DNA from: a virus
Direction: 5' to 3' (one strand)
Virus record (IMG/VR): IMGVR_UViG_3300011438_000005
Location: 1-47,403 of that record
DNA: 47,403 nucleotides
The position numbers and the translations under genes are program-made. Below, piece by piece: positions 7,772 to 41,274 of this stretch. The stretch's first letter is position 1. Every line of letters begins with the position of its first letter. The notes beneath the pieces are model-generated. The model was not told the DNA's origin and ran no database searches. It saw only the letters and a list, made by a program, of their open reading frames with translations.

Positions 7772-7794
7772 CGGGGTCCCTCCAGGACCGGGCG

Positions 7795-8741: not shown

Positions 8742-8769
8742 CGGTCGGGCTCCTCTCGTGGTACGGGTA

Positions 8770-8798: not shown

Positions 8799-8812
8799 GT
8801 CCCCTGGTGCGC

Positions 8813-8841: not shown

Positions 8842-8863
8842 TACCGACCGAGGAGGCGACCTC

Positions 8864-9157
8864 GTGCGCGACGGTGACTTGGAGGACCTCATCCGGCGGT
8901 GTGACCGGGTGCAGCGAGAAATCAACGACCTCCAGCTCACCCTCGGCGCGGTGTGCCCGGCCTGTAGGGCTTGGCCGATCAGGGATCCAGTCACGCCTGG
9001 GCCGGCCTGGCCGACGGTCTGCCGGGCCTGCTTCGTCGAGGTCGACCAGCTCGCCGAGGAGATCGAGCGCCACGGGTTCGCGCCGGCGCACCACCTCGTC
9101 GGCGACCTCCTCGAGCTGCCCGATCTCCGCTTCCGTCGCCTCTCGAGGGCGGCGTGA
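8864..9157 (+). CDS. Hypothetical protein with two CxxC pairs (97 aa); first gene of the rightward unit
   Basis: Complete track ORF with a GTG start preceded by a GAGGAGG RBS. Third codon positions are G/C-rich. Confidence 0.7.
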   Translation: MRDGDLEDLIRRCDRVQREINDLQLTLGAVCPACRAWPIRDPVTPGPAWPTVCRACFVEVDQLAEEIERHGFAPAHHLVGDLLELPDLRFRRLSRAA

Positions 9158-9327
9158 CCAAGAAGGCGAAGCGGCCGCGGCGGGCGAAGCACAACTACAT
9201 CACCCCGAACCCGCCGCCAGGTTGTCGATTCATCATGGGTTTCGCGTTCTCCATCGGCTTCGGCTTCCCGATGCGCGCCGTCACCCTCTACGAACGTGGA
9301 CAGGACGAAATCGGAGGCCTCTCTTGA
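9154..9327 (+). CDS. Possible small protein (57 aa), not in the ORF track as a separate gene
   Basis: GTG 9154 overlaps the stop of 8864..9157 (GTGA), and its own TGA overlaps the TTG start of the methyltransferase (TTGA). It is in the frame of track ORF 8971..9327. Sequence is VTKKAKRPRRAKHNYITPNPPPGCRFIMGFAFSIGFGFPMRAVTLYERGQDEIGGLS. Confidence 0.45.
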   Translation: MTKKAKRPRRAKHNYITPNPPPGCRFIMGFAFSIGFGFPMRAVTLYERGQDEIGGLS

Positions 9328-24177: not shown

Positions 24178-24646
24178 GGTGACCTTCGAGCCTGCGCGTC
24201 TCCACCACGCCCTCGAGCTCGCGCCGCGGCTTCGCGCCGGCGACGCGGCCGAGGTGCGCGCGAGCGATGGCGTCGACGCCGAGGAGGCCCTGGTCGACTC
24301 CCTGCGGTGGACCGAGCGGCACGGCGGGGGAGCGTTCGCCGGGTTCCTCGACGGGGACCTGGCGGCGCTCTTCGGTGTCGCCCGGCGGAGCCTGATCTCG
24401 CCGGTGGGCGTGCCCTGGCTCCTCACCGGGGAGGTCGTCTCCCGCCACCCCTTCGCCTTCTTCCGCGCCTCGCGGGCGGTGGTGGCGACCTGGCTCGAAG
24501 ACTTCGAGGAGCTCGAGCAGAACGTCGACGCGAGGTACACCGAGGCCCTGCGCTGGGCGGCGCGCCTCGGCTTCATGGTGGGCCCGCCCAAGCCGTTCGG
24601 CGTGCACGGCCTACCCTTCCACCGGATCACGTTGCGGAGGAGCTGA
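24170..24646 (+). CDS. Putative internal virion protein A (T7 gp13 position, 158 aa)
   Basis: Track ORF 23759..24646 trimmed to GTG 24170, with a GGGAGG RBS 10 nt upstream (alternative GTG at 24179). The pattern GFLDGDLAALFGV ... VPWLLTGE ... EQNVDARYTEALRWAARLGF resembles gp13-like proteins. This is tentative. Confidence 0.5.
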   Translation: MGRVTFEPARLHHALELAPRLRAGDAAEVRASDGVDAEEALVDSLRWTERHGGGAFAGFLDGDLAALFGVARRSLISPVGVPWLLTGEVVSRHPFAFFRASRAVVATWLEDFEELEQNVDARYTEALRWAARLGFMVGPPKPFGVHGLPFHRITLRRS

Positions 24647-24810
24647 TGCCCAACGCCCAGGAGCGGAAGCTCAAGAAGGTGGCGAAGACCTTGCTCGGCA
24701 AGGGTGACCTGAAGCGCCTTCCGGGCGAGAGCGCCAAGGAGGCGATGGCCCGCTTCGTGTACGGCACGATGCGGAACCAGGGATGGAAGCCGAAGACGGA
24801 GAAGCGCTGA
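24646..24810 (+). CDS. Hypothetical small basic protein (54 aa)
   Basis: In the frame of track ORF 24307..24810. ATG 24646 shares one base with the upstream TGA, and a GGAGGAGC RBS is present. Confidence 0.55.
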   Translation: MPNAQERKLKKVAKTLLGKGDLKRLPGESAKEAMARFVYGTMRNQGWKPKTEKR

Positions 24811-25262
24811 TGTGCAGCCCTCTTGTGATCGGCGGCGTGCAGGCCTACGGCCAGATCCAGCAAGGCAACTATGAGGCCAAGGTCGAGAACCAGAACGCGC
24901 AATTTCTCGAGGGCGCCGCGGGCGTCGCGCAGCAGCGCGGCGGAAACGCGGCCGGCCTCCGCCGCATGAAGGGCTCCCAGGACATCGGCGAGGCGCGCGC
25001 CTCCGCCGGCGCCTCCGGCCTCGACGTGGGCTCCGGATCGGTCGTCGACATGATCGCCGACTCCCGCATGCTCTCCGAGCTCGACGCGCAGACCGAGACG
25101 AACAACGCCGCGCGCGAGGCCTGGGGGTACAAGGTCCAGGCCACCGAGGCGCGCGCCCGGGCGAAGCTCGCGAAGACGAAGTCGCGCTACAACGCCGCGG
25201 CGACGCTGCTCGGCGGGCTCGGGTCGACGGTCGAGCAGGGCGCGAAGATGGCGGGGGCCTGA
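24810..25262 (+). CDS. Putative internal virion protein (gp14 position, 150 aa)
   Basis: Track ORF 24783..25262 trimmed to ATG 24810, which shares one base with the upstream TGA. It has a hydrophobic N-terminus and is Gln/Ala/Gly-rich. Confidence 0.55.
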   Translation: MCSPLVIGGVQAYGQIQQGNYEAKVENQNAQFLEGAAGVAQQRGGNAAGLRRMKGSQDIGEARASAGASGLDVGSGSVVDMIADSRMLSELDAQTETNNAAREAWGYKVQATEARARAKLAKTKSRYNAAATLLGGLGSTVEQGAKMAGA

Positions 25263-25264
25263 GC

Positions 25265-27247
25265 ATGGCACCCCGACTCCGCCTCCAGACGCTCCCCGAG
25301 GTCGCCCCGATCCAGGGGCCCACGCCCCAGTACCACCTCGACGCTTCGGGCGCGTTCGGCGAGCAGCTCGTCCAGCAGGTCGGGCGCCTCGAGGGCGCGG
25401 CCGTGTCCGAAGGCCAGAAGCGCCTCGAGGAGCAGCGCGGCCGGGCGGACGTCGCCGCGATCGAGGAGGCCGAGGCGCGCTTCCAGCTCGACGTGAACGA
25501 CCGCATGTACGGGAAGGACGGCAAGGGCTTCCTCTCGCTCGAGGGCCACGACGCGCTCAAGGCCTCGACGACCACCTTCGACGAGATCCAGAAGCGCCGC
25601 GCCGAGATCGAGGGCACCCTCACCGATCGGCAGCGGACGGCCTTCCGGGCCCGGACGAACGGGACCCTCGTCGCCACCCAGCGCCAGCTCGAGGGCCACG
25701 TCGCCCAACAGGTCAAGGTGGTCGAGGGCCAGGCCTTCGCCTCGAGGCGCGCCGCGGCGCTCGACACGGTCGCGAACGGCTACCTCGACGCCGGCACGAT
25801 CGACCGGGAGCGGCAGAACCTCGAGCCGCTCGTGATGGCCGAGGCCAAGCGCCGGGGGCTCGAGGGCGCGGGCACCTACCCTCCGCCCGCCGATTCGGCG
25901 GCCGGGCAGGTCCTCCATGAGTGGCGGAACGACGTCGCGAAGACCGTGCTCGAGCGCCTCCTCGCCGACAAGGACGCCACGCGCGCCAAGGCCTTCCTGG
26001 CGCAGCCCAGCGCACCTGGCGGCGCGAGCGTCCGGGAAGCGCTCGGCCAGGAGGGCGCGAAGTACGAGGCCGCGATCGCCCACGTCTCCGAGCAGGTCGA
26101 GTCTTTCGACCGAGCAGCCTCCGCCGTCGAGGCGGCGCGGAACCCCTCGACCGGCAAGGTCGACGAGCGCTCGGCACGGAAGACGGTCGCCGATGCGCCG
26201 CCCGCCCTGCGCGCGACCACCCGGGCCCACCTCGAGCAGCTCCTCAACGGGGAGAGCGAGAGCTGGCGCGCCACGGTGGGCGACTGGTGGAACCAGGCGA
26301 AGACCGCCTACGAGGGCGGGCCGGACGGGAAGGCGCGGCGCGGCCTCCAGGCGATCCCCGGCAACGTCTCGAGCTGGCTCCGGGCGAACGCGCCCGACGC
26401 CTGGCGCAGCATGCAGGACTGGGCGAAGGCCGACATCGAGCACGCCCGCAGCGGCGCCTCCACGCCCGACCAGGAGGCCGCGTTCACCGAGCTCATGGTG
26501 AAGGCGATCGACAACCCCGACCAGTTCGTCACCCTCACCGGCCCCGAGATCGAGCAAAAGCACCTCTCGCGCGTCTCCCCGAAGGAGCGGCGCGCCCTGC
26601 TCGGCACGATCCTTCAGGCGAAGGCGCAGGCGCACCGGCCGGACGAGACCCTCCCGGCGAACGTCGTGAAGGAGATCCTCTCGAAGGGCCGGCCGGGCGG
26701 CGGCGGAGCGAGCCTCTTCCCCGCGAAGGGCGACGACCCCGGCCAGTGGCCCCCCGAGAAGAGCCAACTCTTCAACGTGATCTTTCGGGACCTCCTCGCC
26801 TACCAGGCGCAGGAGAAGGCGCGCACCGGGAAGGTGCCCGAGCTCGACGCCTTCTCGAAGAGGATCGACGGCTGGATGCAGCGCGGCACCGTGAAGGACA
26901 CCGGCGTCTTCTTCGACGACAAGGGCGTGCCTCGCGTGAAGGCCCTCACCTCGCCCGCCTATCAGGGCAAGGACTTCGAGGTGGACTCCCCGCCCGCGGC
27001 GCCGGTCCCGAACCCGAAGCGGGCGGAGTTCCGCGCGCTCCTGCGTGGCGACCGCAAGGCCGCGGTACCTGAGACCGAGGCCGTGCTCCAGTACCTCTGG
27101 GCGATCGACCCCACGAACCCGAAGGGGAACCCCCAGGCGCAGCCTCCGGCCGAGTTCTTCCAGACCTACGACCTCGACGAGCTCGACCTCCGCGCCGCGG
27201 GCGGCCGGGCCGGCGAGGCGTCGGTGCCGTACAACCGCGTGCCCTGA
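25265..27247 (+). CDS. Putative internal virion/core protein (gp15 position, 660 aa)
   Basis: Complete track ORF, largely helical in character. The call rests on position between the gp14-like and giant genes. Confidence 0.6.
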   Translation: MAPRLRLQTLPEVAPIQGPTPQYHLDASGAFGEQLVQQVGRLEGAAVSEGQKRLEEQRGRADVAAIEEAEARFQLDVNDRMYGKDGKGFLSLEGHDALKASTTTFDEIQKRRAEIEGTLTDRQRTAFRARTNGTLVATQRQLEGHVAQQVKVVEGQAFASRRAAALDTVANGYLDAGTIDRERQNLEPLVMAEAKRRGLEGAGTYPPPADSAAGQVLHEWRNDVAKTVLERLLADKDATRAKAFLAQPSAPGGASVREALGQEGAKYEAAIAHVSEQVESFDRAASAVEAARNPSTGKVDERSARKTVADAPPALRATTRAHLEQLLNGESESWRATVGDWWNQAKTAYEGGPDGKARRGLQAIPGNVSSWLRANAPDAWRSMQDWAKADIEHARSGASTPDQEAAFTELMVKAIDNPDQFVTLTGPEIEQKHLSRVSPKERRALLGTILQAKAQAHRPDETLPANVVKEILSKGRPGGGGASLFPAKGDDPGQWPPEKSQLFNVIFRDLLAYQAQEKARTGKVPELDAFSKRIDGWMQRGTVKDTGVFFDDKGVPRVKALTSPAYQGKDFEVDSPPAAPVPNPKRAEFRALLRGDRKAAVPETEAVLQYLWAIDPTNPKGNPQAQPPAEFFQTYDLDELDLRAAGGRAGEASVPYNRVP

Positions 27248-27253
27248 GCCCCC

Positions 27254-30200
27254 ATGCCCCTCACCCCCGCCGAAGCGATCGACGCCGCCCGCAAGGGCGA
27301 CCGCGCCGCGCTGGGCCTCGTGCGCGAGGAGCCCACGGTGCCAGTGGCGGCGCCGGCGGAGGAGCAGCCCATCGGACCGCCCGAGCCTCCGCGCGTGACG
27401 CCGGCGGAAGCCGTCGCCGGCGCCCGGGCGCGGGCCGGCCAGGAGCGGGACCTCGACGCGGGCTTCCAGGCCTGGAAGGCGACCCAGACCTCGCTCACCC
27501 CGGAGCGCGGGATCGACGTTGCGATGGTCGCGCGCGCCACGGGCAAGCCCTTCGACTTCGTCGCCGATCACCTCGACGAGCTCAAGAAGGGGGTCGACCA
27601 GGAGCGGCTCAAGAAGGGGATCCTCGAGTCGCCCACCCTCCAGCGCCTCATGCAGGACCCGCAGTCCGCCGCGGTGGTGAAGGACCGTCTCGACGACTTC
27701 TCCACCTGGGAGTGGATCTTCGGGCGCTGGACCCGCACGCCCACGAAGCGGTGGGACCCCCTCGCGAACGGCTACGCCTACGAGCTCAAGGGCCCGGAGA
27801 CGATGGCGGACGCCCCGGCCTGGGTGCAGGCGGCGCGCGGGGGCTGGGCGGAGAGCGTCCAGGTTCCGGCCCTCGCCGCGAAGGTCCTCGGCGGGCAGGG
27901 CACGCCCGAGGACGAGGCGGAGCTCGAGCGGCTCGACAAGGAGTACGGCGGCCGGACCTACGGCGCCCACAACCCGGCGACGCGCGCGCTCGTGGGCGCG
28001 CCGAAGATGCTGCCCTACATCGTGGGCTCCGCCCTCGCGCGGCTCGCCGGCGGGGCGGCCGCCGGCCTGGCGGGTGGCGGCGCCGGCGCCGCGGCGGGAG
28101 CTCCTGCGGCGGGAGTGGGCGCCGTACCTGGCGCGGCGGTCGGGGGGATCTCCGCGGCCGCGGTGGGCCAGTATGTCGCGGGCGCGGCCTTCGACTTCTT
28201 CGAGAACGTGGGCCCGCTGTACCTCCAGCTCCGCCGGATGAAGAACGCGGACGGCGATCCCCTCCTCTCCGACGAGGAGGCGAAGGGGTACGCCGTCTCG
28301 ACCTCGGCCGGCCTCTCGCTCCTCACCTCGGGGATCGGCGCGAAGGTCGCAACCTCGGTGCCCTGGCTCAAGGACGTCCTGAAGAAGCAGGCGGAGCGGG
28401 GCGCCCAGGCGGCCTTCGTCCACGCCGGCGGAGCCGAGGCGCTGAAGTACGCCACGATCCAGTACGGGAAACACGTCGCCTCCGGTGCCGCCCTCATGGC
28501 GACCCAGGCCGCGGGCAACGCCGCCACCGTCGAGCTCTCGCGCGCGCAGCACGGCGAGGCCGCGGACTGGTGGAACGTCGGGCGCGCTGCGCGCGACGGC
28601 GCGGTTACCGGCCTCCAGGACATGCTCCTCATCGCGGGGTGGACGCCAGCGCGGGAGTACCTGCGCGAGGTGGGGCTCACCGCCCAGATCCAGGCCGAGG
28701 GCCTGCGCTACGACGCCCTCATCGAGCAGGCCGGCAAGAGCAAGATCCTCGAGCACCCCGAGACCGGCGACCACGTGCTCGACCAAGTCGCGCTCGCGCA
28801 GGGCTCGCCCGTCATGCTGGCGGACCCCGCCGGGTGGGACGCCTACTGGACCGGGCGGAAGTTCAACCCGCGCGAGGTGGCGGGCGAGGTCGCCGGCGAC
28901 AGCGGCGCTCAGTACGACCGGGCGAAGGCCGGCCTCGACACCGACCTCAGCTTCCCCTTGCAGAAGTGGGCCTCGAAGTTCAAGGGGACCGAGCACCTCC
29001 TCGGGCTCCGCGATGACGTGAAGTTCACCGGGGAGACCCGGACCCGGCGCCAGCAGGCCGCATGGGCGAAGCAGCTCGAGGGCCTCCGGAAGGTGGCCGA
29101 GGGGGTCGGGAAGGACGAGCAGGTCGGCGAGCTCGACGGGATCGAGCATGCGAAGTACCTCGAGGTGCTCGCCGCGAAGCCGGAGCTCGGCGAGGCCCAC
29201 GCGCAAGCGGTGGCGCGGCTCTTCCGGGACTCGATCGCCTTCTTCGCCTCGAAAGCGCAGCTCACCCCCGCCCAGGTCGCCCAGCAGTTCCCGCTCCCCA
29301 TCCACGGCGAGGGCCCCGCCGGGCCGCGCGTCGCCACCCCGGCCCCGGAAGGGGTTCCCGTGCCAGAGGTCCAGGCAAGGCCGCAGGGCCCCGCGACACC
29401 GCCGGTGGGGCCCGTGGAGGCGCCAGGTCCCCGGAGGCCCGCAGAATGGCCGGCCGGTCGCGGGAAGGACCTTCCCGCGGAGACGCGAGCCCTCATCCTC
29501 GCCGCCTACCGAGGCGACCGCCGCGCGATCCTCCAGCTCAAGCGCGCCGCGTTCGTCGACGCCCTGGTGCCCCAGGTCGGCAACCAGCGGGCCCACGAGG
29601 AGTTTCTCCGCTCGAAGGGCTCCGAAGGGGGCGTCCACGTCGTGCTGGACATGCCCGGCCTGAAGGCCCGGAACGACCTGTACGGCCAGATCGCAGGGGA
29701 CCAGGCGCTCCAAGTCTTCGGCCGGGAGCTCGCCGAGGCCTCGAGGCCCCAGCGCGGCAAGGCCCACCGCATGAGCACGGGCGATGAATTCTATGGACAT
29801 TTCGACACCGCGGCCCAGGCCGACGCCTTCCTCGAGGACTTCAAGGGCCGCCTCGCCGGCCCGGCCGGGAAGCTCCGGGAGAAGGACCAGCTCTCGCTCT
29901 ACGCCGGCGTGGGCGCCACCAAGGAGGCCGCGGTCGCCGAGCTCGTGAAGGCGAAGGGCGCGGCGAAGGCGAAGTACGGCGACTCTCGCGCGGGCGGCGC
30001 GCTCGGGCACGGGGAGTCCTTCGTCTCGAGGGACGAGCTCGCGGTGGTGGCGCCCCCCTCCGCCGTCTCGCCGGCGCCGGCGAAGGACGTGGGCAAGGCG
30101 GCGGAGCGGGCGTTCTCCTTCCTGCGCTCCGGGAAGGGCGGCGCCGAGCTCGCCGACCTGGTGCGGGCCGCGAAGGAGGCCTCGGCCGCGGGCGGCAAGG

Positions 30201-33200
30201 GCGAGGTGCCGAAGGAGCTCCGCAAGCAGGTTGACGCGGTGCAGAAAGAGATCCGGGACCTCGAGGCGAAGCGCGCCAAGGCCGCCGGGAAGGCCGAGCC
30301 CGGCGACAAGGACGAGCAGGTCCGGCGCCAGATCGAGGCCCAGGATCCCGTGATGCGGCGCAGCACGACTCGCCGGGTGCACCTCGTCCTCGCCCCGGAC
30401 GAGGAGGGCGGCGCGCCGCGCTGGCAGGTCCTCGGCCCCGAGGCGCCCCCCGCCGGCGCCGAGATCCGGCCGGTGACCATGCCGGAGTGGCTCTCCGGCG
30501 AGCGGTTCGCCGGCGAGCGGCCGGCGTGGGAGTGGACCTGGAGCGCGCTCCAGGATGGCTCCGCAGCCCCGGAGCAGGCCCAGAAGCTCGTGCAGGCCTA
30601 CATGCGGCGGGCCTTTGAGGACTTCCCGCCCAACGACTTCGCGCTCCGCCAGGGGTACGCCGTCGCCCGGATCCTCGACGGCTTCGGCGGAAAGAAGCTC
30701 AAGAGCGTTTTCGACGACCTGCGCGCGTGGATGCGGCTCCCCGAGGGCGCCCGGCCGGAGGACCCGCTGCCCGAGGTGGCATGGGGGCACCTCATCGACT
30801 TCGCCCAGCGGGACATCCGGTACGTGACCACCCAGAAGGGCTTTGCGAACAAGCAGGTCACGTCGACCATGCTCGAGTGGCTGCGCATCACGCGCGCCGA
30901 GCTCGACCCTTCGAGGCCCACCTTCGCGAAGCGGCCGCCGAAGTTCTACGGCCAGGCCGTCACCCTCGAGGAAGCGCGCGCGCCCACCGCAGCCGACCCG
31001 ATCGCCGCGAAGCTCGAGGGCCTGCGCGCGCGGGCGGGCGAGCTCGAGGCGCAGGCGCGCGAGGCGCGCGTGCAGACCGCGGCGGCCCGGCCCAAGCTCG
31101 ACGCCCAGGCCGTGATCGACGTGGTCGGCGCCGACGCACAGGGCGCCTTCCGCGGCCTCATCGCCGAGGGCGGGATCCACCCCGACGAGCTCGCGAAGCG
31201 CCTCGGCCTCGAGGACGGCGTCGAGCTCCTCTCCGCGATGGCGGCCGCCCACCGAGAGAAGACCGGGGACGTCGGGGTCGTCGAGCTCGACCAGGGCGCG
31301 GTGGTGCTGCGCCAGGGCGAAGTCTCCGAGGCGAGCGGCTCGCCGTGGCACTCGGCCGTCGAGCGGGCGATCGAGTCGGTGCTGCTCAAGGTCAATACGA
31401 CCCCCCTCAAGGACGACGAGGCCACGCCGAGGGAGTGGCTCGCGAAGATCCGGAAGACCCCGGGCGTGAAGGCCGAGGAGATCGAGATTCTGGGTCTCGA
31501 CGCCCTGCTCGGCGGAGCGGACCAGACGAAGCGGGCCCGCTGGGCGATCGTCGCCGCGGTGCGCCAGCGGCGCATCGTCGTTACGGAGCGGATTCTCGGC
31601 GAGCCGCCGAAGCTCGACGCGATGGGCCAGGCCATCCGGCGCGCGATGGTGGAGGAGCTCCACGCCGAGGGGCTCGAATACGCTCCGGCGGGCGATGGCG
31701 CCGGGCCGGGCTTCCGGCTCGCCGACGAGCGGTTTGGGATCGTCACCCTTTCGCAGGCGCGCGACATAATGACGAGGCGGAGCAGGGGGGACCGCGGTGG
31801 CGTGTTCGCCCCGATCCCGGACTCCCAGCTCGAGGCGATCGTAAACGCCGGCGCGAACCTCGTGGCCCTCGAGAAGGACGGCGGGGACGGCATCCTCTGG
31901 TACCTCACCGACGGCGCGCCGGTCCCCGCCCACGGGAGCCTCATTTCCACCGCGGCATGGATCGCCCAGGAGCTCAGTCACCGGGAGCTCGAGGGCCGGG
32001 TCACGAAGGACATGCTCGAGCCCGTCCGAAAGACGCTCCAGGAGCAGCTCGACGCGAGCCTCGAGGAGACGGGCGCGAAGGTGATGCAGGTCTGGGAGAT
32101 GGGGGCCGACTCGTTCACTTTCAGTCCCCCGGGATTCCAGGTAATCGCCGGCGCGCTCGCTGGCGCCGGCCGAGGGGTCGGGCCGCGCTTCGCCACCCGG
32201 GCCGAGGCGGAGGCGCATGCGCTCGTGATGCAGAAGGCGTACCGGGAGCTCAAGCGCCCCGAGTACGAGTCGGCGGTGCGCACCTACCAGGGCCACCTCG
32301 ACAACCTCGCTTTCTTCGAGGGGAAGCACCTCGAGGAGTACGCGAGCCCGGAGGAGAAGCTCAAGGTTCACTACGGCGGCCCCCAGGGCTACACGGTCGG
32401 CAACGAGGCCGAGGGCACCTACCGAGAGATCCTCCTCTTCCGGCCCGAGCAGCCGACCGGAGTGAACGAGCTCCTGCGCCAGGGCTTCTACCAGTCGCCA
32501 CACTTCCAGGGGGACGCCGGCCTGAACGGCGACCTCATGGCCCACGCCCGGGTGTCGGAACACCGCCTCGGCGACGACTCGCGCGTCCTCCTCATCGAAG
32601 AGATCCAGTCGGACCTCCACCAGGCCGGACGAGAGAAGGGCTACACCGACGCGCAGGTCGACCCGGCCCGGTTCAAGGTGGACAGCGGGAAGACCACCCC
32701 CTCGGGCGTGACCCTCTGGCGCGTCGAGGACCCCGTCACGAGGCGCGTCGAGACCCTCCGGAGCGACTTCCAGCGGAACGTCGTCGACGAGGCGAGCGCG
32801 CGTGCGCACTTCGCGTCCCTGCTCGTGCGCGAGCTCCGCCAGGTGCAGGCCTCGAAGAAGGCGGTCCCGGATACCCCGTTCAAGGAGACCTGGGAGGAGC
32901 TCGTCGTCAAGCGCGTGCTGCGCTACGCGGCGGAGAAGGGCCACAACCGGATCGCCCTCACCCCGGGCGAGGTGCACACCCGCCGATGGGGCTCCGAGCT
33001 CATCGCGTGGGAGAAGGGCCCGAAGACGGAGAGCGCGCCGGAGCTCGTCGTGTCCTGGGAGGACGCGCGCGGGAAGCTCATGCGGGCGATCCAGGATCAC
33101 AGCGACACGGTGCAGCCCCGCAACGAGCGCTTTTGGTCCGGACGCCTCGCGGAACTATCGGAGGCGAAAACCGAGCAAGAGGCGGCTGACGCGATCGGCC

Positions 33201-36200
33201 GAGGTGGCGAGTCGTTCGCCGAGGCGATTCACCGGCTCGAGCGCGCCGAGCTCAACGGCTTCGGCCTCGGGGATCTCCTCGGCACGCACGAGGTCCAGGG
33301 GTTCCACCTCCGCGTGAAGGAGCAGTCGGGCGGCCAGGTGGCGGGGCTCAACCTCGAGGAGGCCGCGGTGGCGCGGGGCCTCGTGCACCAGGGCGGCGCG
33401 CCGGACTTCGTCGCCTCCGAGGCGGACCTCGAGGCGAAGCTCACCGCGAGCCTGCCCCGGTGGTCGGCGGAGCGCCGCGCGGCCGTCGCGAAGAAGCTCT
33501 GGGCGAAGATGCAGACCCAGGACCAGGGCGCGAGCGCGCCGCGCGCCGAGGCCTTCACCCAGGCCTACGACCGGAGGATCAAGGGCGTCCTCGAGAAGCT
33601 CGCGAAGAAGTACCGCGGCAAGCTCGAGGTGGCTCCCCTCGGCGACGTCTTCAAGGGCTCCGCCCGCTGGGAAATCTTCAGGATGAACCCCGGCGAGCTG
33701 CGCAACGCGCTCGCCTCGAAGATCAGCGTCCGGCTCGAGCAGCTTTGGCAGGCCGAAAAGGATCGCTACGCTGCCCTCACCCTCGAGGAGCAGCGGCGCC
33801 CGGACACGAAGCTCATGTCCGACGCGGAGCGCGAGACGGAGCGCTCGCTGCACAGCACGATCTCGAATCTCTCCGGTGGCTCAGACATTCTGCACGCGAT
33901 CGGCATCCCGGACCGCGACCCGGTGGGCACCTACAACGCCATGCGCGAGTGGTCGGATCGGGTGGGGATCCCCATCGACGACCTCGTGAACGATCCCCAC
34001 ATCGAGGTGTGGACGGTCGACCTGCCGCAGGAGGGCCGCAACCGGATCCTGCGCGAGGGCCTGCCCCTCTTCCAGGAGGGCCGCGGCCTCGTGAAGTTCC
34101 GGGTGCCCGGCTCCCCCGGCGAAGGGATCGAGCTCGACCTCACCCTGCTCGCCCGGGCCGACGAGTCGACCGCGGCGCACGAGCTCGGTCACTGGATGGG
34201 CCTCGTTCTCGGCCAGCTCGCGAGCCGCGTCGGCGCCGCGCCGGAGCTGCAAGGACTGTACGCGACGGCCCTGAAGGCGATGGGCTACACCGACCACGAC
34301 CAGCGGATCGCCGCGCTCCTCGAGCTCCAGGCGCTCGCACGCCGGGAGGCGGAGGGGGCCACCCTCACCGCGGCGGAGAAGACCCGCCGGACCACCCTCG
34401 AGGCCGGCGAGGAGCAGCTCTCCCACGCCTTCGAGCTCTACCTCTCCGAGGGCAAGGCCCCCACCGTGGAGCTCGGGCGCATCTTCTCCCGGTTCAAGCT
34501 CTGGATGGTCCGGATCTACAAGGGCCTCGCCGGCGTGCAAGCCACCTACGAAAAGGACTATGGGCGGCCGCTCGAGCTCTCCGACGACGTCCGGCGCATG
34601 TTCGACCGGATCCTCGGCGCGGACGAGGCGGTGCGCCAGGCGGAGCTCGACCTCGAGGGCGCCCAGCTCGAGGCGGCGGTGCGCGCGGCCGCCCCGCCGG
34701 CGGAGGCTGACCAGATCGTCCGGGACCTCCTCGAGGCGCGCCGCCTCGGCAAGGAGCAGGTCCACCGCCTCCTCCTCGCCGAGGACTCGCGCGAACGGCA
34801 GGAGTTCTTCCAGCGGGAGCGCGAGAAGGCCTCGACCGAGATCGCGGCCGAGCTCGACAAGCAGCCTGGGTACAGGGCGCAGCGGTTCCTCCGGGAGGGG
34901 GTCATGCCCGAGGGCCAGGCGCTCCCCGACGAGCTCGTGACCGACGTCGGCGAGCCCCGCATGCTCGACCGCGACGAGGCGGTCGCCCGGTACGGCGCCG
35001 ATTTCGTGAACCGGGCGCTCCGCGGCCTCACCACCCGCGGCGACCGGGCCGTCCCCGCGGACGTCGCGGCCGAGGCCTTCGAGTTCAAGAGCGGCGACGA
35101 GCTCGTGCAGGCGCTCGCGAAGCTGCCGAACCGGGCCGAGACGATCCGCACGCGCGTGGAGGAGCGGCTCCAGCGGGACTTCGGCCCGACGCTGCTCGAG
35201 AACCCCGCGAAGCTCGCCGACGAGGCGATGGACGGGATCCACAACGAGGCGAAGGCCCGGTCCATCCTCGCCGGGATGCGCCTGCTCGCCCGCAAGCTCT
35301 ACCCAGCGCTCGACCCTCGCTTCCGGTCCGTCGACCTGGTCGCGCTCGAGCGGCGCGCGCGCGAGCTCGTCGACGAGCGGCCGCTCACCGAGGCGGCGCC
35401 GGGCCGGGCCCTCCAAGCGGAGAAGCGCCAGGGCCGGCTCGCCCTCGAGCTGCTCGGGAAGGCCGTCCGCGAGAAGGACGAGACCACCCGGCGGGAGATC
35501 GCGGCGCAGGCCTTCGACGCGCATGAACAGGCGCTCTTCTCACACTTCATGTGGAGGGCCGCGAAGGAGGCCCGGGACCAGGCCGACAAGGACGTCGCCC
35601 GCCTGCGCACCGTCTCGGGGCCCCGGATCCGGGCCGACCTCGGCAAGGCCGGCGCCGACTATCAGGAGCGCGTCGACGACCTGCTCGCCTCCGTCGAGCT
35701 GCGCGCCTCGAGGAGCGTCGCCGAGGTGGGCCGGCGCCGGGATATCAACGCCGCGGCCGGTGGCGACACCGTCGCGGCCGCCTCCATGCTCGCCTGGATC
35801 GAGCAGCAGCGCGCGCTCAACCGCGACCCCTACGTGCCCGACCGGGTGATCGAGCTCCTGAAGAAGACCCAACACTGGCGCGAGCTCACGCCGGCGGAGC
35901 TCGCCGACCTCCGCTCCACGGTCGACTCCATCGTCCACCTCGCCCACGTGAAGACGACCCTCCTCACCACCCAGGGGCGGCGGGAGCGGAAGGCAATCAT
36001 CGGCGAGCTCTCCCAGCGGCTCTTCGAGAGCTTCGGCGACAACGCGATCGTCGTCGACCGGAACACCCTCTCCTTCAAGAAGAGGGCGCTTCGCGCCGTC
36101 AAGCGGCTCCAGGCCGGCGTGATCCGGCCCGAGGAGTTCTTCCGGGAGGCGGACGGCGGCGACCTCAACGGCCCCTTTACTCGCTACCTCTGGAACGTGG

Positions 36201-38173
36201 TCTCCGACTCCGCGCACAGGTGGAGCGACCTCGCCGACCAGGTGGCGAAGCCGGTGCTCGCCGAGCTCGAAAAAATGCCCATGAGCGAGAAGCTGCGCTG
36301 GCGCGGCGAGCGGTTCACCGTGAAGGGCCAGCCCTACACGATGGAGGCCGCGCTCGCCGTGGCGCTCAACTGGGGCAACCCCTCCAACCGCCAGAAGCTC
36401 GTGAAGGGGTGGAGATACGGCGGCCTCGAGAAGTTCGGCCTCCAGGCATGGGATGGCCCGGAGACCGGGCAGGAGTTCCTCCGCCACCTCACCGCTGGCG
36501 ACTGGAAGCTCGTGCAGCGGATCTGGGACCAGCTCGAGACCCTTTGGCCCCAGATGGAGGAGCTCGAAAAGCGCATGACCGGCCTCGCCCCGCCGAAGAT
36601 CAAGCGGGAGAAGTTCACCGTGCGCACCCCCGACGGCCAGGACCTCGAGCTCGACGGCGGGTACTATCCGATGGTCTATGATCGGCGCTTCTCCAGGGCC
36701 GGCGCGGCGCAGGGCGAGAAGAGCGACCTCGGCTCCTTCCAGCTCTTCTCCCCCGGCGCGGAGCGCGCGATCACTCCCCACGGGCACCTCAACGCCCGCG
36801 TCGAGGACTTCGCCAGGCCGGTGGACCTCTCCCTCGTCGGCCTGTACCGCCACATGGGGCACGCCACGAAGGACGTCGCCATGCGCGAGGCCTTGATCTC
36901 GGTCCACGAGATCCTCACCGACTCGGACTTCCGGGCCGCCCTCCAGCGCACCGCCGGCGAGGAGGTCCTGCCGCTCCTCGACAAGTGGCTGCGCGACACC
37001 GCGAACGACCTCGTGATCCCGGACGGCGGCGAGGGCCAGTGGCTCGCGTTCAACAACATAACGCGCTCCGGCCTCACCGGCTCGATCTTCGCCTTCAACG
37101 CGGCGCAGAGTCTTCAGAACCTCACCGGCGTCTTCAACGCTGCCGACCGCGTCGACGCCCGGTACCTCTGGAAGGGGATCTCGCAAGTCTCGAAGCAGCG
37201 CGGCGCCGTGATCGAGTGGATCAAGCGCGTCGACCCGGAAATGCGGCACCGCGCCCGGAACCTCGACCGCGACCTGGCGGCCGAGTTCCGCCGCACCCTC
37301 GGGCGAACGGGCCCGGTCGCGCGCGCGAAGCAGGTCGCGATGTGGGCCTTCCAGGCCTCCGACGCCGTGACCGCGTACGCCGTGTGGCTCGGCGCCTACC
37401 ACCAGGCGCTCGACGGGAAGGTCGACGGGGTCGGCACCACCCAGCAGGAGGCCGTGCGCTGGGCCTCCCAGACCGTCCGCCTCTCGTTGACGTCCAACAT
37501 GACGAAAGACCTCCCCGCGCTCATGCGCTCGCCGCACGCCAAGTGGTTCACGATGTTCGCGGGCTGGGCGAATAGCCGCCTCAACCGCCTGATCGCCGGC
37601 TCGAGCGACGCCAGGCGCGACTGGAGCGACAAGCGGCGCGGCCGGGCGATCCGGAAGTTCACCCGCATCACCTTCTGGTTCCTCGCCGCGGCCGTGATCT
37701 CTGACCTCGCGGTAGGGAAGGGCGCCCAGGACGACGACGAGGACGGGCGCGTCGACGGGGCCGACTGGGCCCGCTTCATCGCCCGCCGCGCCGCGCTCGC
37801 TCCGTTCTCGGTCGTGCCGCTCGTCGGCCCCCTGGCCCGGGCGGTCGTCGACAAGCGCAGGGACGTCTCCCTCGCCCCGGTCGAGCGAATCTACTCCCAG
37901 GCCGCGCAGGCCATCGGCACCGGCATCGACGCGGGGCGCAAGTGGCTCGCCGGCGACGAGGAGTGGACCCAGGATCTCGCCGACTTCGCCCTCTCCGGCG
38001 CCGAGGCCGCGGCGATGGGCACCGGCCTTCCCGTCTCCCAGGCGAAGGCCTCGCTCGGCTACTGGCTCGACCCGGACCGCGACCCGGAGGACACCGCCCT
38101 CGAGCGGGCACTCGGCACCACGTACGGGAAGAAGCGCAAGGGCTCCCTCTCGACTGCCCTCACAGGAGAATGA
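27254..38173 (+). CDS. Giant 3,639-aa protein in the gp16 (ejectosome/internal core) position; multi-domain polyvalent-type protein with a GGDEF-like domain and an HExxH motif
   Basis: Uninterrupted track ORF of 10,920 nt with G/C-rich third positions throughout. ATG 27254 lies 6 nt after the upstream stop. Features by amino-acid position: a Gly/Ala-rich hydrophobic stretch (about 255-315), GGDEF-like domain (about 765-910, STGDEF at 840-845), EEIQSD block (about 1782), HELGH (2309-2313) and a C-terminal TM helix (FTRITFWFLAAAVISDLAV). Confidence 0.85.
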   Translation: MPLTPAEAIDAARKGDRAALGLVREEPTVPVAAPAEEQPIGPPEPPRVTPAEAVAGARARAGQERDLDAGFQAWKATQTSLTPERGIDVAMVARATGKPFDFVADHLDELKKGVDQERLKKGILESPTLQRLMQDPQSAAVVKDRLDDFSTWEWIFGRWTRTPTKRWDPLANGYAYELKGPETMADAPAWVQAARGGWAESVQVPALAAKVLGGQGTPEDEAELERLDKEYGGRTYGAHNPATRALVGAPKMLPYIVGSALARLAGGAAAGLAGGGAGAAAGAPAAGVGAVPGAAVGGISAAAVGQYVAGAAFDFFENVGPLYLQLRRMKNADGDPLLSDEEAKGYAVSTSAGLSLLTSGIGAKVATSVPWLKDVLKKQAERGAQAAFVHAGGAEALKYATIQYGKHVASGAALMATQAAGNAATVELSRAQHGEAADWWNVGRAARDGAVTGLQDMLLIAGWTPAREYLREVGLTAQIQAEGLRYDALIEQAGKSKILEHPETGDHVLDQVALAQGSPVMLADPAGWDAYWTGRKFNPREVAGEVAGDSGAQYDRAKAGLDTDLSFPLQKWASKFKGTEHLLGLRDDVKFTGETRTRRQQAAWAKQLEGLRKVAEGVGKDEQVGELDGIEHAKYLEVLAAKPELGEAHAQAVARLFRDSIAFFASKAQLTPAQVAQQFPLPIHGEGPAGPRVATPAPEGVPVPEVQARPQGPATPPVGPVEAPGPRRPAEWPAGRGKDLPAETRALILAAYRGDRRAILQLKRAAFVDALVPQVGNQRAHEEFLRSKGSEGGVHVVLDMPGLKARNDLYGQIAGDQALQVFGRELAEASRPQRGKAHRMSTGDEFYGHFDTAAQADAFLEDFKGRLAGPAGKLREKDQLSLYAGVGATKEAAVAELVKAKGAAKAKYGDSRAGGALGHGESFVSRDELAVVAPPSAVSPAPAKDVGKAAERAFSFLRSGKGGAELADLVRAAKEASAAGGKGEVPKELRKQVDAVQKEIRDLEAKRAKAAGKAEPGDKDEQVRRQIEAQDPVMRRSTTRRVHLVLAPDEEGGAPRWQVLGPEAPPAGAEIRPVTMPEWLSGERFAGERPAWEWTWSALQDGSAAPEQAQKLVQAYMRRAFEDFPPNDFALRQGYAVARILDGFGGKKLKSVFDDLRAWMRLPEGARPEDPLPEVAWGHLIDFAQRDIRYVTTQKGFANKQVTSTMLEWLRITRAELDPSRPTFAKRPPKFYGQAVTLEEARAPTAADPIAAKLEGLRARAGELEAQAREARVQTAAARPKLDAQAVIDVVGADAQGAFRGLIAEGGIHPDELAKRLGLEDGVELLSAMAAAHREKTGDVGVVELDQGAVVLRQGEVSEASGSPWHSAVERAIESVLLKVNTTPLKDDEATPREWLAKIRKTPGVKAEEIEILGLDALLGGADQTKRARWAIVAAVRQRRIVVTERILGEPPKLDAMGQAIRRAMVEELHAEGLEYAPAGDGAGPGFRLADERFGIVTLSQARDIMTRRSRGDRGGVFAPIPDSQLEAIVNAGANLVALEKDGGDGILWYLTDGAPVPAHGSLISTAAWIAQELSHRELEGRVTKDMLEPVRKTLQEQLDASLEETGAKVMQVWEMGADSFTFSPPGFQVIAGALAGAGRGVGPRFATRAEAEAHALVMQKAYRELKRPEYESAVRTYQGHLDNLAFFEGKHLEEYASPEEKLKVHYGGPQGYTVGNEAEGTYREILLFRPEQPTGVNELLRQGFYQSPHFQGDAGLNGDLMAHARVSEHRLGDDSRVLLIEEIQSDLHQAGREKGYTDAQVDPARFKVDSGKTTPSGVTLWRVEDPVTRRVETLRSDFQRNVVDEASARAHFASLLVRELRQVQASKKAVPDTPFKETWEELVVKRVLRYAAEKGHNRIALTPGEVHTRRWGSELIAWEKGPKTESAPELVVSWEDARGKLMRAIQDHSDTVQPRNERFWSGRLAELSEAKTEQEAADAIGRGGESFAEAIHRLERAELNGFGLGDLLGTHEVQGFHLRVKEQSGGQVAGLNLEEAAVARGLVHQGGAPDFVASEADLEAKLTASLPRWSAERRAAVAKKLWAKMQTQDQGASAPRAEAFTQAYDRRIKGVLEKLAKKYRGKLEVAPLGDVFKGSARWEIFRMNPGELRNALASKISVRLEQLWQAEKDRYAALTLEEQRRPDTKLMSDAERETERSLHSTISNLSGGSDILHAIGIPDRDPVGTYNAMREWSDRVGIPIDDLVNDPHIEVWTVDLPQEGRNRILREGLPLFQEGRGLVKFRVPGSPGEGIELDLTLLARADESTAAHELGHWMGLVLGQLASRVGAAPELQGLYATALKAMGYTDHDQRIAALLELQALARREAEGATLTAAEKTRRTTLEAGEEQLSHAFELYLSEGKAPTVELGRIFSRFKLWMVRIYKGLAGVQATYEKDYGRPLELSDDVRRMFDRILGADEAVRQAELDLEGAQLEAAVRAAAPPAEADQIVRDLLEARRLGKEQVHRLLLAEDSRERQEFFQREREKASTEIAAELDKQPGYRAQRFLREGVMPEGQALPDELVTDVGEPRMLDRDEAVARYGADFVNRALRGLTTRGDRAVPADVAAEAFEFKSGDELVQALAKLPNRAETIRTRVEERLQRDFGPTLLENPAKLADEAMDGIHNEAKARSILAGMRLLARKLYPALDPRFRSVDLVALERRARELVDERPLTEAAPGRALQAEKRQGRLALELLGKAVREKDETTRREIAAQAFDAHEQALFSHFMWRAAKEARDQADKDVARLRTVSGPRIRADLGKAGADYQERVDDLLASVELRASRSVAEVGRRRDINAAAGGDTVAAASMLAWIEQQRALNRDPYVPDRVIELLKKTQHWRELTPAELADLRSTVDSIVHLAHVKTTLLTTQGRRERKAIIGELSQRLFESFGDNAIVVDRNTLSFKKRALRAVKRLQAGVIRPEEFFREADGGDLNGPFTRYLWNVVSDSAHRWSDLADQVAKPVLAELEKMPMSEKLRWRGERFTVKGQPYTMEAALAVALNWGNPSNRQKLVKGWRYGGLEKFGLQAWDGPETGQEFLRHLTAGDWKLVQRIWDQLETLWPQMEELEKRMTGLAPPKIKREKFTVRTPDGQDLELDGGYYPMVYDRRFSRAGAAQGEKSDLGSFQLFSPGAERAITPHGHLNARVEDFARPVDLSLVGLYRHMGHATKDVAMREALISVHEILTDSDFRAALQRTAGEEVLPLLDKWLRDTANDLVIPDGGEGQWLAFNNITRSGLTGSIFAFNAAQSLQNLTGVFNAADRVDARYLWKGISQVSKQRGAVIEWIKRVDPEMRHRARNLDRDLAAEFRRTLGRTGPVARAKQVAMWAFQASDAVTAYAVWLGAYHQALDGKVDGVGTTQQEAVRWASQTVRLSLTSNMTKDLPALMRSPHAKWFTMFAGWANSRLNRLIAGSSDARRDWSDKRRGRAIRKFTRITFWFLAAAVISDLAVGKGAQDDDEDGRVDGADWARFIARRAALAPFSVVPLVGPLARAVVDKRRDVSLAPVERIYSQAAQAIGTGIDAGRKWLAGDEEWTQDLADFALSGAEAAAMGTGLPVSQAKASLGYWLDPDRDPEDTALERALGTTYGKKRKGSLSTALTGE

Positions 38174-38175: not shown

Positions 38176-39183
38176 ATGAAGAAGCTCCTCCCCCTGCTCC
38201 TCCTCCTCGCCGGCCAGGCGCTCGGCGCGGTCCCCTCGGCCACGAGCTCGAGCGGCCCGTATACCTGTAACGGCGTCACCACCGCCTACACCGCGGGCTT
38301 CCCCTTCCACGCGAACGCCGACCTGGTCGTCCGCAAGACCTTCACCTCGACGGGCGCCACCTCCACCCTCACGATCACCACCGACTACACGGTCACCGGC
38401 GCCGGCGCGGCCGCGGGCGGGACCGTGACCCTCGTCGCCGGCTCGGTGTGTACCTCGGGCTGGACGCTCACGATCAAGCGGGTCGTGCCCATCACCCAGC
38501 CCCTCGCGCTCTCCCCGTCCGGCTCGTACCAGGCGACGGCGAAGCCTATCGAGCGGTCCGGCTTCGATCGGCAGACCTTCATTTCCCAGCAGCTCGACCG
38601 GGAGAAGGCGCAGGTATCGGGCGGCCTGCCCTGTGCCGCGGGAGACTTCCTCACCAGCGCCGACGGTCGCGTGCTCGACTGCGCAACGCCGGCAAGCGGC
38701 GGTGGCACGGTGACCCTCGACGGGGGGACGACGCTCGAATCGGGCACGGGGATCCCCACCGCCCCGGCCGGTCCGGCGAGCCTCTACATGCGAAGGTCCG
38801 ACGGCACCCTGTGGATGTTCTACGAGTCCGCTTGGCACCTCATCGCCGGGCCCGGCTCCTCGAGCGGTGGCGGTCCCGTGGCGGCCTTCGTGGTCGAGCA
38901 GGGATCCGCGGGCACAATCTCGAAGCAGGTCGGGTGTACGGTGGTGAACGCGGGAGCTCCTGGCTTCGGGCCCTACGTGGTAACGCTCGACGTTCCCCTC
39001 GCGCTCAACCGTCAGGCGATCGTCGTCTCCGGGCAACCCTTCGCGGGCGACGCGGTGGTCGTTAATTACATCAAGTCCTCCACGACCACGATCCTCGTCT
39101 TCACAGAGGAGTGGGTCGCCGGTGCCTTCGCCTACGGGAACGACGTCGGGATCTCGTTCTCGCTCTTCGATCTCGGACCGTAA
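38176..39183 (+). CDS. Putative tail fibre protein with a signal-peptide-like N-terminus (335 aa)
   Basis: Track ORF 37942..39183 trimmed to ATG 38176, with an AGGAGAA RBS. It occupies the gp17 position. YTCNGVTTAYTAGFPFHANADLVVRK ... TDYTVTG ... GTVTL is a common tail-fibre N-terminal pattern. The N-terminus is MKKLLPLLLLLAGQALGA. Confidence 0.6.
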   Translation: MKKLLPLLLLLAGQALGAVPSATSSSGPYTCNGVTTAYTAGFPFHANADLVVRKTFTSTGATSTLTITTDYTVTGAGAAAGGTVTLVAGSVCTSGWTLTIKRVVPITQPLALSPSGSYQATAKPIERSGFDRQTFISQQLDREKAQVSGGLPCAAGDFLTSADGRVLDCATPASGGGTVTLDGGTTLESGTGIPTAPAGPASLYMRRSDGTLWMFYESAWHLIAGPGSSSGGGPVAAFVVEQGSAGTISKQVGCTVVNAGAPGFGPYVVTLDVPLALNRQAIVVSGQPFAGDAVVVNYIKSSTTTILVFTEEWVAGAFAYGNDVGISFSLFDLGP

Positions 39184-40538: not shown

Positions 40539-40858
40539 CGGACCAGCGGAAAAGGCCCACCGAGGCGAAGCTCGCCGAGACGGTGGGCCAGGCCTGCGAG
40601 GCGGCGCACGGTGGGCTCGTCGCCGGCGTGATGGCTGGCATGGACGCGCTCCTCGACCGCAAGCTCGAGAGGCTCGACGACACGGTGCGCAGCACCGGGC
40701 TCGCACTCGAGGAGATCCTCCAGGCAACGAAGCTCGACGCCGAGGCGCGCGCGGAGTTCCGGACTACGCTGGAGCGGGTCGAGGAGCGGCTCTCCGTGCT
40801 GGAACAGTGGCGCAAGGACCAGGTCGCGATGGCGGCGGACGCTGCCAGGGGTGGGTGA
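40535..40858 (+). CDS. Hypothetical protein (107 aa)
   Basis: In the frame of track ORF 40049..40858. ATG 40535 makes an ATGA overlap with the upstream stop. Confidence 0.6.
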   Translation: MTDQRKRPTEAKLAETVGQACEAAHGGLVAGVMAGMDALLDRKLERLDDTVRSTGLALEEILQATKLDAEARAEFRTTLERVEERLSVLEQWRKDQVAMAADAARGG

Positions 40859-41274
40859 TGGATAGGACGAAGCTCGCCGCAGAGCTGCGGCGCGACGAAG
40901 ACGTGCGGCTCTTCCCGTACGTCGACCAGGTCGGGAAGACCACGATCGGCGCCGGCCGGAACCTCACCGACAAGGGGATCAGCCTCGAGGAGGCCGAGCT
41001 CCTCCTCGAGCACGACATAGCCGAGGTGGTGGACGAGCTCGAGCGCCGCCTGCCCTGGTGGTCGACGCTCGACGAGGTCCGCCAGCGGGTGCTCGCGAAC
41101 ATGGCCTTTAACATGGGCGTCCAGGGGCTCCTCGGCTTCCGGAACACCCTCGCCCTGGTGCAGCTCGGGAGGTACCAGGAGGCCGCGGCGAACATGCTGC
41201 TCTCGAAGTGGGCCCAGCAGGTCGGCCCGCGCGCCCTGCGCCTCTCGAAGATGATGGAGAAAGGCACCACGTAA
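40858..41274 (+). CDS. Endolysin, T4-type lysozyme (GH24, Phage_lysozyme) (138 aa)
   Basis: Track ORF 40807..41274 trimmed to ATG 40858. LRRDEDVRLFPYVDQVGKTTIGAGRNL reproduces the Glu-8aa-Asp-5aa-Thr catalytic spacing of T4 lysozyme (E11, D20, T26). Confidence 0.85.
   Translation: MDRTKLAAELRRDEDVRLFPYVDQVGKTTIGAGRNLTDKGISLEEAELLLEHDIAEVVDELERRLPWWSTLDEVRQRVLANMAFNMGVQGLLGFRNTLALVQLGRYQEAAANMLLSKWAQQVGPRALRLSKMMEKGTT

Follow-up and report, generated by a model that had tools for sequence, protein, structure and literature searches.

What is a single open reading frame (ORF) of 3,639 codons doing in a virus record of 47,403 nucleotides (nt)? The question is raised by IMG/VR record IMGVR_UViG_3300011438_000005, the whole of which is the window analyzed here (~71% G+C). 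One ORF takes up 23% of this window, in the place held by the largest internal virion protein gene of related phages. We found that the ORF is a real gene. We also consider it likely that its product is an expanded counterpart of Bbp10 of Bordetella phage BPP-1. Its gene lies in the slot of T7 gp16, that is, of internal virion protein (IVP) D, in a BPP-1/epsilon15-like podovirus. The polyvalent protein is built in three layers and would be delivered with its cargo enzymes. Coordinates of all features are collected in Table 1.

The giant ORF as a single gene

A first-pass annotation of this DNA had described an uninterrupted ORF of 10,920 nt, and we found it exactly so. With the base composition of the window, a stop-free run of this length has a chance probability of ~1e-29 by our own arithmetic. 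The G+C content at the three codon positions was ~0.74/0.48/0.95 in 12 of the 12 full 900-nt tiles. The third-position value (GC3) ranged from 0.91 to 0.97 in these tiles and was 0.85 in the final tile of 40 codons. This uniformity pointed to one coding frame along the entire ORF. G+C-rich DNA also yields long accidental ORFs, and a 2,637-codon antisense ORF (25187..33100, minus strand) overlaps the giant gene. Its codon-position G+C of 0.94/0.49/0.75 marked it as a shadow of the high-GC3 sense frame and not as a gene.

The source is a metagenomic contig, so we weighed the explanation that at least two ordinary genes, for example a Bbp10-like gene and a separate effector, were joined by a frameshift error or in a chimeric contig. 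A slight G+C dip across 32-34 kb and the lack of a 917-aa (amino acid) insert in the closest relative, P0002, would suit such an artefact. However, the frame did not change in any tile, and all the module junctions were bridged collinearly by independent homologues. P0002 aligned to aa 3-1354 and 2272-3639 of the giant protein, P0024 to aa 950-1394, P0019 to aa 1356-3628 and P0020 to aa 1722-3637. The identical 3,639-aa product was present on two contigs and was recorded in three sources (JGI, Logan and ENA), and the relatives are as a rule single ORFs of 2,300 to 4,330 aa. Since the homologues span the junctions and the same product recurs, a frameshift or chimeric fusion is extremely unlikely.

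Three-layer architecture and its modules

Fourteen metagenomic relatives were found, most of them 2,300-3,450 aa long; relatives of up to 4,330 aa exist. Local alignment to these relatives divided the protein into three layers: an N-module (aa ~60-937), a variable center (aa ~940-2271) and a conserved C-module (aa 2272-3639). P0002 (2,852 aa) was 54% identical in the N part and 70% identical in the C part. The C-module was shared by all the relatives and by Bbp10. For the first 2,000 residues, the searched phage collection contained no counterpart save two short local matches.

The C-module aligned to the phrog_9880 profile at E=5.9e-198, with aa 2269-3627 covering profile positions 935-2228 of 2231. 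By tblastn it matched the large structural-cassette protein of 49 phage records, with 24-28% identity in the matches listed. These included BPP-1 Bbp10 and the proteins of Pseudomonas phages AF and HU1, Xanthomonas phage CP2, and Caulobacter, Vibrio and cyanobacterial podoviruses. Prophage copies were spread over many Gram-negative phyla (Pseudomonas, Paraburkholderia, Caballeronia, Ralstonia, Rhodospirillum, Roseovarius, Desulfovibrio, Geobacter, Vulgatibacter, Acidobacteria and others). They were 24-28% identical over near full length, and none exceeded 40% even over its best segment. The AlphaFold2 (AF2) model of aa 2262-3460 was nearly all helix, with a mean pLDDT of 73. In BFVD this model matched, at E<=1e-3, C-terminal portions of 50 giant viral proteins. 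Roughly half of these are unnamed, and the named ones carry labels such as 'Large polyvalent protein associated domain-containing', 'ART-PolyVal-like', 'crystallin motif-containing', 'nuclease', 'N-acetyltransferase', 'MuF C-terminal domain' and 'structural protein'. These matches mark the C-module as a chassis that a large class of polyvalent phage proteins have in common. Searches of the PDB with the model yielded nothing but generic matches to long helices (MukB, spliceosome, dynein; E>=0.1), which were rejected.

Bbp10 (NP_958679; 2,052 aa; phrog_9880) is the cultured prototype of the family. The giant protein resembles it in gene position, in the LPD22 domain, in the [AD]xSTxxHExxH motif and in the C-module, where the identity to Bbp10 and its homologues was 24-28% over ~1,150-1,400 aa. 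In Pfam searches, Bbp10 scored 88.5 bits for LPD22, at its N-terminus, and 32 bits for PBECR1. The presence of these two domains means that Bbp10 is itself polyvalent as Iyer 2017 (PMC5512222) uses the term. The giant protein is 1,587 aa longer, and carries a GGDEF domain, a module that we call Block A and an 'IEEIQSDWHQ' insert, whereas Bbp10 has a small PBECR1 nuclease domain alone. Bbp10 is listed in Table 2 of Hardies 2016 (PMC4819975) as the T7 gp16 (IVP-D) homologue of BPP-1, a homology reported there via joined hidden Markov models (HMMs). The IVP-D assignment of the giant protein rests on this entry, on gene position and on helicity.

The N-module was common to P0002-P0007. It carries LPD22, a hallmark of the N-terminus in this protein family, then a hydrophobic stretch rich in Gly and Ala, a helical region and the GGDEF domain. 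The Gly/Ala-rich stretch matched weakly the Gly-rich part of a tail-associated lysin PHROG. The protein had been read at first pass as a chain of several modules, among them a GGDEF-like palm domain and an HExxH zincin. Pfam searches on tiles detected GGDEF, and LPD22 besides, and the HExxH motif was present in addition. The score of the GGDEF domain (PF00990) was 26.1 bits on a 500-aa tile but 23.7 bits for the whole protein, on either side of the cut-off of 23.8. The family profile matched the diguanylate cyclases of the PDB at E=5e-4, and the GGDEF domain of P0002 reached 39.6 bits. PADLOC and NCBIfam scans found nothing more than a weak GGDEF.

In the alignment to the PDB cyclases, LDMPGLKARNDLYGQIAGD was paired with the canonical D-x-x-x-F-K-x-x-N-D-x-x-G-H-x-x-G-D. 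By analogy with PleD, we take D799 to be the metal-binding Asp and N807 and D816 to be the guanine-reading Asn and Asp; K804 is presumably a further guanine contact and was grouped with them. The loop T842-G-D-E-F846 stands in place of GGDEF, with the first Gly replaced by Thr. The segment 'DMPGLKARND' was identical in P0003, P0004, P0005 and P0007 and occurred as a variant in P0006, and 'HRMSTGDEF' was identical in P0003-P0007. P0002 has a different and more canonical GGDEF at the same place ('RWGGDEL'). Two divergent versions thus both keep the active-site residues, which argues for a working cyclase. There was no RxxD inhibitory site (I-site) in the GGDEF domain of the giant protein. A scan of IMG/VR by peptide patterns returned no relative of the GGDEF-bearing lineage, and a scan by DNA pattern returned a single contig with its signature, so the lineage appears to be rare.

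A solo GGDEF-like 'nucleotide cyclase' was also observed in Myxococcus phage Mx1 (L041 4079-4810), between the genes of the prohead protease and the major capsid protein. It was 29% identical to aa 726-867 of the giant protein. This gene may be a second hint of cyclases travelling in phage heads.

The single HExxH of the giant protein, at aa 2309, lies in the region that opens the C-module. The pattern [AD]xSTxxHExxH was present in 11 of 13 large relatives (P0002-P0015 less the partial P0008) and at aa 797 of Bbp10. Among ~75 diverse members, H2309, E2310, H2313 and E2387 were 100% conserved and E2394 99%. S2305 and T2306 were conserved in 96-97% of the same members, and the LFQ at aa 2272-2274, 35 residues upstream of HExxH, in 91-96%. 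The AF2 model of this region showed two short strands followed by a helix with HExxH, and the conserved Glu in a later helix. This predicted strand-strand-helix order fits the zincin-like metallopeptidases of polyvalent proteins described by Iyer 2017 (PMC5512222). A search for the zincin fold gave no Pfam match at E<=10, the MPTase-PolyVal model included, and no PDB match by profile or Foldseek. The HExxH region is probably a zincin-like metallopeptidase. The zincin of the first-pass annotation was upheld as a motif, but as the invariant opening of the C-module and not as a cargo enzyme that may be left out. The LFQ, which lies in a low-confidence linker of the model and is FYQ in Bbp10, might be where the protein is processed. 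A similar motif, GQPLF, stands a short way before the end of the stand-alone IEEIQSDWHQ proteins.

Different domains were found in the variable center of different relatives. The center of P0003 holds ddrB-ParB and a PBECR5 nuclease (an SLT domain lies at the extreme N-terminus of this protein), that of P0005 holds ddrB-ParB and GNAT, and that of P0012 holds ART-PolyVal. Because of this variety, the center seems to act as a cargo bay. In the giant protein, it holds Block A, which was common to P0002, P0018, P0024 and P0026 and had no Pfam match. The following segment (aa ~1356-2270) is an insertion with respect to P0002, which has only ~45 residues where the giant protein has 917, while the N- and C-modules are conserved between the two. 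The first-pass annotation had noted several long blocks without a recognizable function; in Pfam, Block A and the insert stayed without a match.

Word-indexed searches of the center gave few homologues, and exhaustive HMMER searching was needed. The insert proved to be one copy of a ~700-aa protein family that also stands alone in phages. We aligned it with ten stand-alone proteins, most of ~600-740 aa (alignment A3). The motifs common to both were FYSAAEQA; LPGGENYREILL; SSHFxEPNxLAHxRxNDR...LLIEEIQSDWHQAGREKGY; GVPDAPFKxTWxxLAxKR...GYD; GGEGMKKYYDE; and ITPEM...GQPLF. With aa 1080-2272 as the query, HMMER found 4,176 cluster representatives at E<=1e-3. Among the 150 best matches listed, nearly all aligned to aa ~1719-1925, the core that we call the IEEIQSDWHQ domain. 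In 162 domain-bearing sequences, 100 were longer than 2,000 aa (maximum 7,483 aa) and 37 were shorter than 1,000 aa. Two or more copies were present in 45 of the 162, and 65 also had the zincin start, at a median of 200 residues downstream. One stand-alone member of 740 aa, P0169 (L038 10001-12223), lies directly upstream of the terminase genes on a P22-like phage contig, outside ejection-protein cassettes.

The IEEIQSDWHQ domain had no match in Pfam, NCBIfam, PADLOC or the PDB. In alignment A5, H, R, E, S, Q, G and P were invariant, and these residues, several of them polar, suggest that the domain is an enzyme. It may be one of the LPDs of Iyer 2017 that are missing from Pfam. Several attempts to assign a fold were discarded. 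A profile of 23 sequences matched only EME1 in the PDB, at E=1.2, which was taken as chance. The AF2 model of aa 1350-2275, built from an 11-sequence alignment, had a mean pLDDT of 43, and a Foldseek search of the insert model against the PDB returned noise, mainly SARS-CoV-2 protease at E>1. A PD-(D/E)xK-like reading of the 'ND...IEEIQ' hairpin was a guess from motif spacing and is not claimed.

Proposed delivery of the protein and competing explanations

LPD22, GGDEF and the HExxH motif occur in one chain, and its gene is flanked by portal, protease, capsid, tail-tube, IVP and tail-fibre genes. The giant protein thereby resembles the polyvalent proteins of Iyer 2017 (PMC5512222) in its chained unrelated domains, its LPD, its zincin-like motif and its late-virion-gene neighborhood. 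It differs from them in that the IEEIQSDWHQ domain matches no Pfam LPD model and the zincin motif no Pfam model. GGDEF is listed by the same authors as an occasional domain of polyvalent proteins. The fit to the polyvalent-protein concept, proposed at first pass, was strengthened by these findings, since LPD22 is a signature domain of that concept and Bbp10 is itself polyvalent. According to Hardies 2016 (PMC4819975), IVPs 'variably host ... domains destined for the cytoplasm', and the virion RNA polymerase (vRNAP) of phage N4 is embedded in an IVP-D homologue.

A possible course of delivery can be outlined by analogy with T7 gp14/15/16, N4 gp50 and phi24B gp47. The helical C-module would fix a few copies of the giant protein in the capsid core, over the portal, where the gp14-like and 660-aa proteins would also be assembled. 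When the phage infects a cell, the chain would pass out via the tail with its domains only loosely connected. The hydrophobic segments might help to form or anchor a trans-envelope channel, and the N-terminal and central domains would finally lie in the cytoplasm. In that compartment, GGDEF could synthesize cyclic di-GMP (c-di-GMP) or a similar nucleotide, and host targets could be acted on by the unknown enzymes. The zincin might cleave the polyprotein itself, perhaps close to the conserved LFQ junction; equally, its substrates may be host proteins or peptides of the cell wall. It seems well placed to release the cargo, because it sits between cargo and chassis, just after LFQ. Self-cleavage that releases cargo is among the options discussed by Iyer 2017 (PMC5512222). 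The more specific proposal, that the phage injects, at the very onset of infection, an active GGDEF synthase tethered to its DNA-ejection machinery along with a novel IEEIQSDWHQ enzyme, and that the zincin frees the cargo at or near LFQ, is tentative and in our judgment rather unlikely.

Several observations weigh against the interpretation of the giant protein as a delivered, enzyme-bearing IVP-D. Its location in the virion, and even that of Bbp10, is a prediction. The C-module did not match the solved ejection proteins (T7 gp16 and the cyanophage A4 pre-ejectosome chains) in sequence or fold. A comparison of the family alignment A4 with T7 gp16 and epsilon15 gp17 by hhalign gave probabilities <1%, although its power was low with single-sequence targets. 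The membrane-type segments described at first pass stood in part: hydrophobic stretches were present at aa 285-305, 3469-3490 and 3513-3533, but they were only moderately hydrophobic (Kyte-Doolittle 1.4-1.7). The evidence for the zincin consists of the motif and the predicted secondary structure. The GGDEF scores lay at the Pfam cut-off, with TGDEF instead of GGDEF, and the central domain could be assigned no fold (AF2 pLDDT 43).

The last two points would also suit a purely structural ejection or channel protein, in which the enzyme-like domains are inactive spacers. The lack of an I-site agrees with this explanation, as does T7 gp16 itself, which is mainly a channel and motor component. However, the GGDEF catalytic residues were kept in two divergent versions, and HExxH and two downstream Glu were 99-100% conserved in very divergent members. 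The central domain also kept its invariant H, R, E, S and Q, and the relatives swap in the clearly enzymatic ART, PBECR nuclease and GNAT domains. We therefore regard a purely structural role as unlikely.

The size of the protein brought up another explanation, namely that a vRNAP of the N4 type or some other nucleic-acid polymerase is hidden in the blocks. The N4 vRNAP gp50 (~3,500 aa) is present in ~4 copies per virion, and its proposed mode of ejection is that of beads on a string, by way of a ~35-angstrom channel (PMC13434306). The giant protein resembles gp50 in size, in being a single chain and in its gp16-analogous slot, and GGDEF is a palm-type fold. Yet Pfam searches on tiles gave no RNA polymerase family at E<=10, and neither the protein nor the family profile matched N4 vRNAP or any polymerase in the PDB. 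The first-pass annotation had also seen no motifs of T7-type RNA polymerase, and none was found in the giant ORF, to which this search was confined, the rest of the window not being screened. A hidden polymerase is accordingly highly improbable, and the lack of an RNA polymerase domain sets the giant protein apart from gp50.

The same annotation had regarded the size as unusual, with only the N4 enzyme comparable among virion proteins. Size and concept proved less unusual than that. Metagenomic relatives measured 2,300-4,330 aa, and proteins with the central domain reached 7,483 aa. In addition, gp47 of Stx phage phi24B (2,811 aa), with LPD5, LPD1, LPD38 and a MuF-C metallopeptidase, was found in virions by proteomics and is a proposed ejection protein (bioRxiv 10.64898/2026.04.10.717836). 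It is likewise a giant LPD protein with a metallopeptidase, but it has a different LPD set and belongs to a different podovirus lineage.

With the delivered polyvalent IVP-D as the preferred reading, the known and the new can be told apart. Descriptions of polyvalent proteins, some with GGDEF, date from 2017, and Hardies 2016 described IVP-D homologues with cytoplasmic enzymes. Giant ejection proteins have been established by experiment in N4 and are reported for phi24B; the concept of the polyvalent ejection protein is unchanged by the giant protein. New are the combination of domains, the clear evidence for a cargo bay that ends at an invariant protease motif, the rare GGDEF lineage, and the recognition that the inserted domain, though unnamed, is very common. 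The family offers a clean natural example of how podoviruses may rebuild their largest ejection protein by module swapping between a fixed N-module and a protease-plus-helical chassis. It also raises the question whether, and for what purpose, a phage delivers a c-di-GMP-type cyclase with its DNA, be it for host reprogramming, for exclusion of rival phages or for interference with nucleotide-based immunity. A second question is the function of the IEEIQSDWHQ domain, which is carried by giant phage proteins in their thousands as well as by solo phage proteins, and is absent from Pfam, NCBIfam and the PDB. If the proposed mechanism is true, a cargo bay with a self-releasing protease and a channel-forming chassis would be a general delivery design of podoviruses. 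The GGDEF domain would then be the first virion-delivered cyclic-dinucleotide synthase, and IEEIQSDWHQ would rank among the commonest unrecognized cargo domains.

Genomic setting

Table 1. Positions of the giant ORF, its modules and the neighboring genes in the 47,403-nt window
Feature	Coordinates	Strand	Details
Whole giant ORF	27254..38173	+	ATG start, 3,639 codons, 10,920 nt; product 3,639 aa, ~398 kDa, pI 6.3, without cysteine
LPD22 domain (aa 80-158)	27491..27727	+	Pfam PF18834: 35.1 bits on tile, 29.6 bits whole protein, cut-off 28.6
Gly/Ala-rich hydrophobic stretch (aa ~250-320), candidate membrane-inserting segment	28001..28213	+	hydropathy peak aa 285-305
GGDEF (diguanylate-cyclase-type palm) domain (aa ~770-935)	29561..30058	+	Pfam; family profile against PDB
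Block A (aa ~950-1350)	30101..31303	+	common to P0002, P0018, P0024, P0026
917-aa insert relative to P0002 (aa ~1356-2270)	31319..34063	+	alignment A3
Core IEEIQSDWHQ domain of the insert (aa 1719-1925)	32408..33028	+	motif here LLIEEIQSDLHQAGREKGY ... VPDTPFKETW
Putative zincin-like metallopeptidase motif region, opening the C-module (aa 2272-2425)	34067..34528	+	LFQ 2272-2274, S2305-T2306, H2309-E-L-G-H2313, E2387, E2394
C-terminal chassis (~1,200 aa), near all-helical	34529..38170	+	common to BPP-1 Bbp10 and many giant phage proteins (phrog_9880)
Two C-terminal hydrophobic segments (aa 3469-3490, 3513-3533), candidate membrane helices	37658..37852	+	
IVP-A-like internal virion protein gene (gp13 position)	24182..24646	+	phrog_308, E=3e-26
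T7 gp14-like internal virion protein gene	24783..25262	+	phrog_418, E=7e-35; Pfam T7_gp14 24.5 bits, under cut-off 27
Gene of 660-aa protein, gp15/IVP-C position	25265..27247	+	N-terminal ~150 aa resemble BPP-1 Bbp11
Gene with T7-type tail-fibre N-terminal domain (aa 21-139)	38176..39183	+	directly downstream of giant ORF
Separate endolysin gene	40807-41274		further right of tail-fibre gene

The left flank of the giant gene encodes the small and large terminase, the portal ('head-tail adaptor' PHROG), the prohead protease, the major head protein, a Bbp16-type cement protein, two tail-tube proteins, and the IVP-A-like, T7 gp14-like and 660-aa proteins. This gene order is the same as that from bbp21 to bbp9 of BPP-1, and also as that of the metagenomic relative locus L002. 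In T7, the counterpart cassette runs gp13-gp14-gp15-gp16-gp17. The slot of gp16, to which the giant gene had been assigned at first pass, was confirmed by the succession of IVP-A-like, gp14-like, 660-aa, giant and tail-fibre genes; the phage, however, is BPP-1/epsilon15-like and not T7-like, as its BPP-1 gene order indicates. Like the T7 gp16/IVP-D family, the giant gene is the last and largest of its cassette and its product has a helical C-terminal part. The product is ~2.8 times as long as T7 gp16 (1,318 aa), in line with the nearly threefold length noted at first pass, but it has no SLT domain and no detectable similarity to gp16.

The setting also bears on the explanation that the giant protein is not a virion protein but a late protein of the producing cell, such as a lysis or cell-wall factor. 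Homologues are labelled 'lysin', 'lysis protein' or 'endolysin' in records that include Caulobacter, Nostoc and Octadecabacter phages, and the giant protein of P0003 has its N-terminal SLT domain. Such labels, however, seem to go back to pieces with SLT or crystallin motifs that some members contain. Pfam found no muralytic domain in the giant protein, a separate endolysin gene is present, and the giant gene lies inside the internal-virion-protein cassette, between the gp14-like and tail-fibre genes. A role in lysis is thus very unlikely, and the reading as an internal virion protein is preferred. No muralytic domain was found anywhere in the internal-protein set of this phage, unlike in P0003. 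The 660-aa protein showed no SLT domain by Pfam, and its likeness to Bbp11 was limited to the first ~150 residues.

Cysteine was absent from both the giant protein and its 660-aa neighbor, while most other counted proteins of this phage have Cys (up to 8). The median was 0 Cys per 1,000 aa among 110 large relatives, which looks like a family-wide avoidance of cysteine. This absence is compatible with unfolded passage through the oxidizing periplasm, as a correlation only.

No tRNA genes were found in the 47,403-nt window. Its left arm (1-10000) is mostly transcribed leftward and codes for an Erf-type recombinase (6830-7771, minus strand). On the other side of the giant ORF, the tail-fibre gene has an AGGAGA ribosome-binding site within the last codons of the giant ORF. 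Its product starts with MKKLLPLLLLLAGQALGAVPS, a signal-peptide-like N-terminus that is unusual for a tail fibre.

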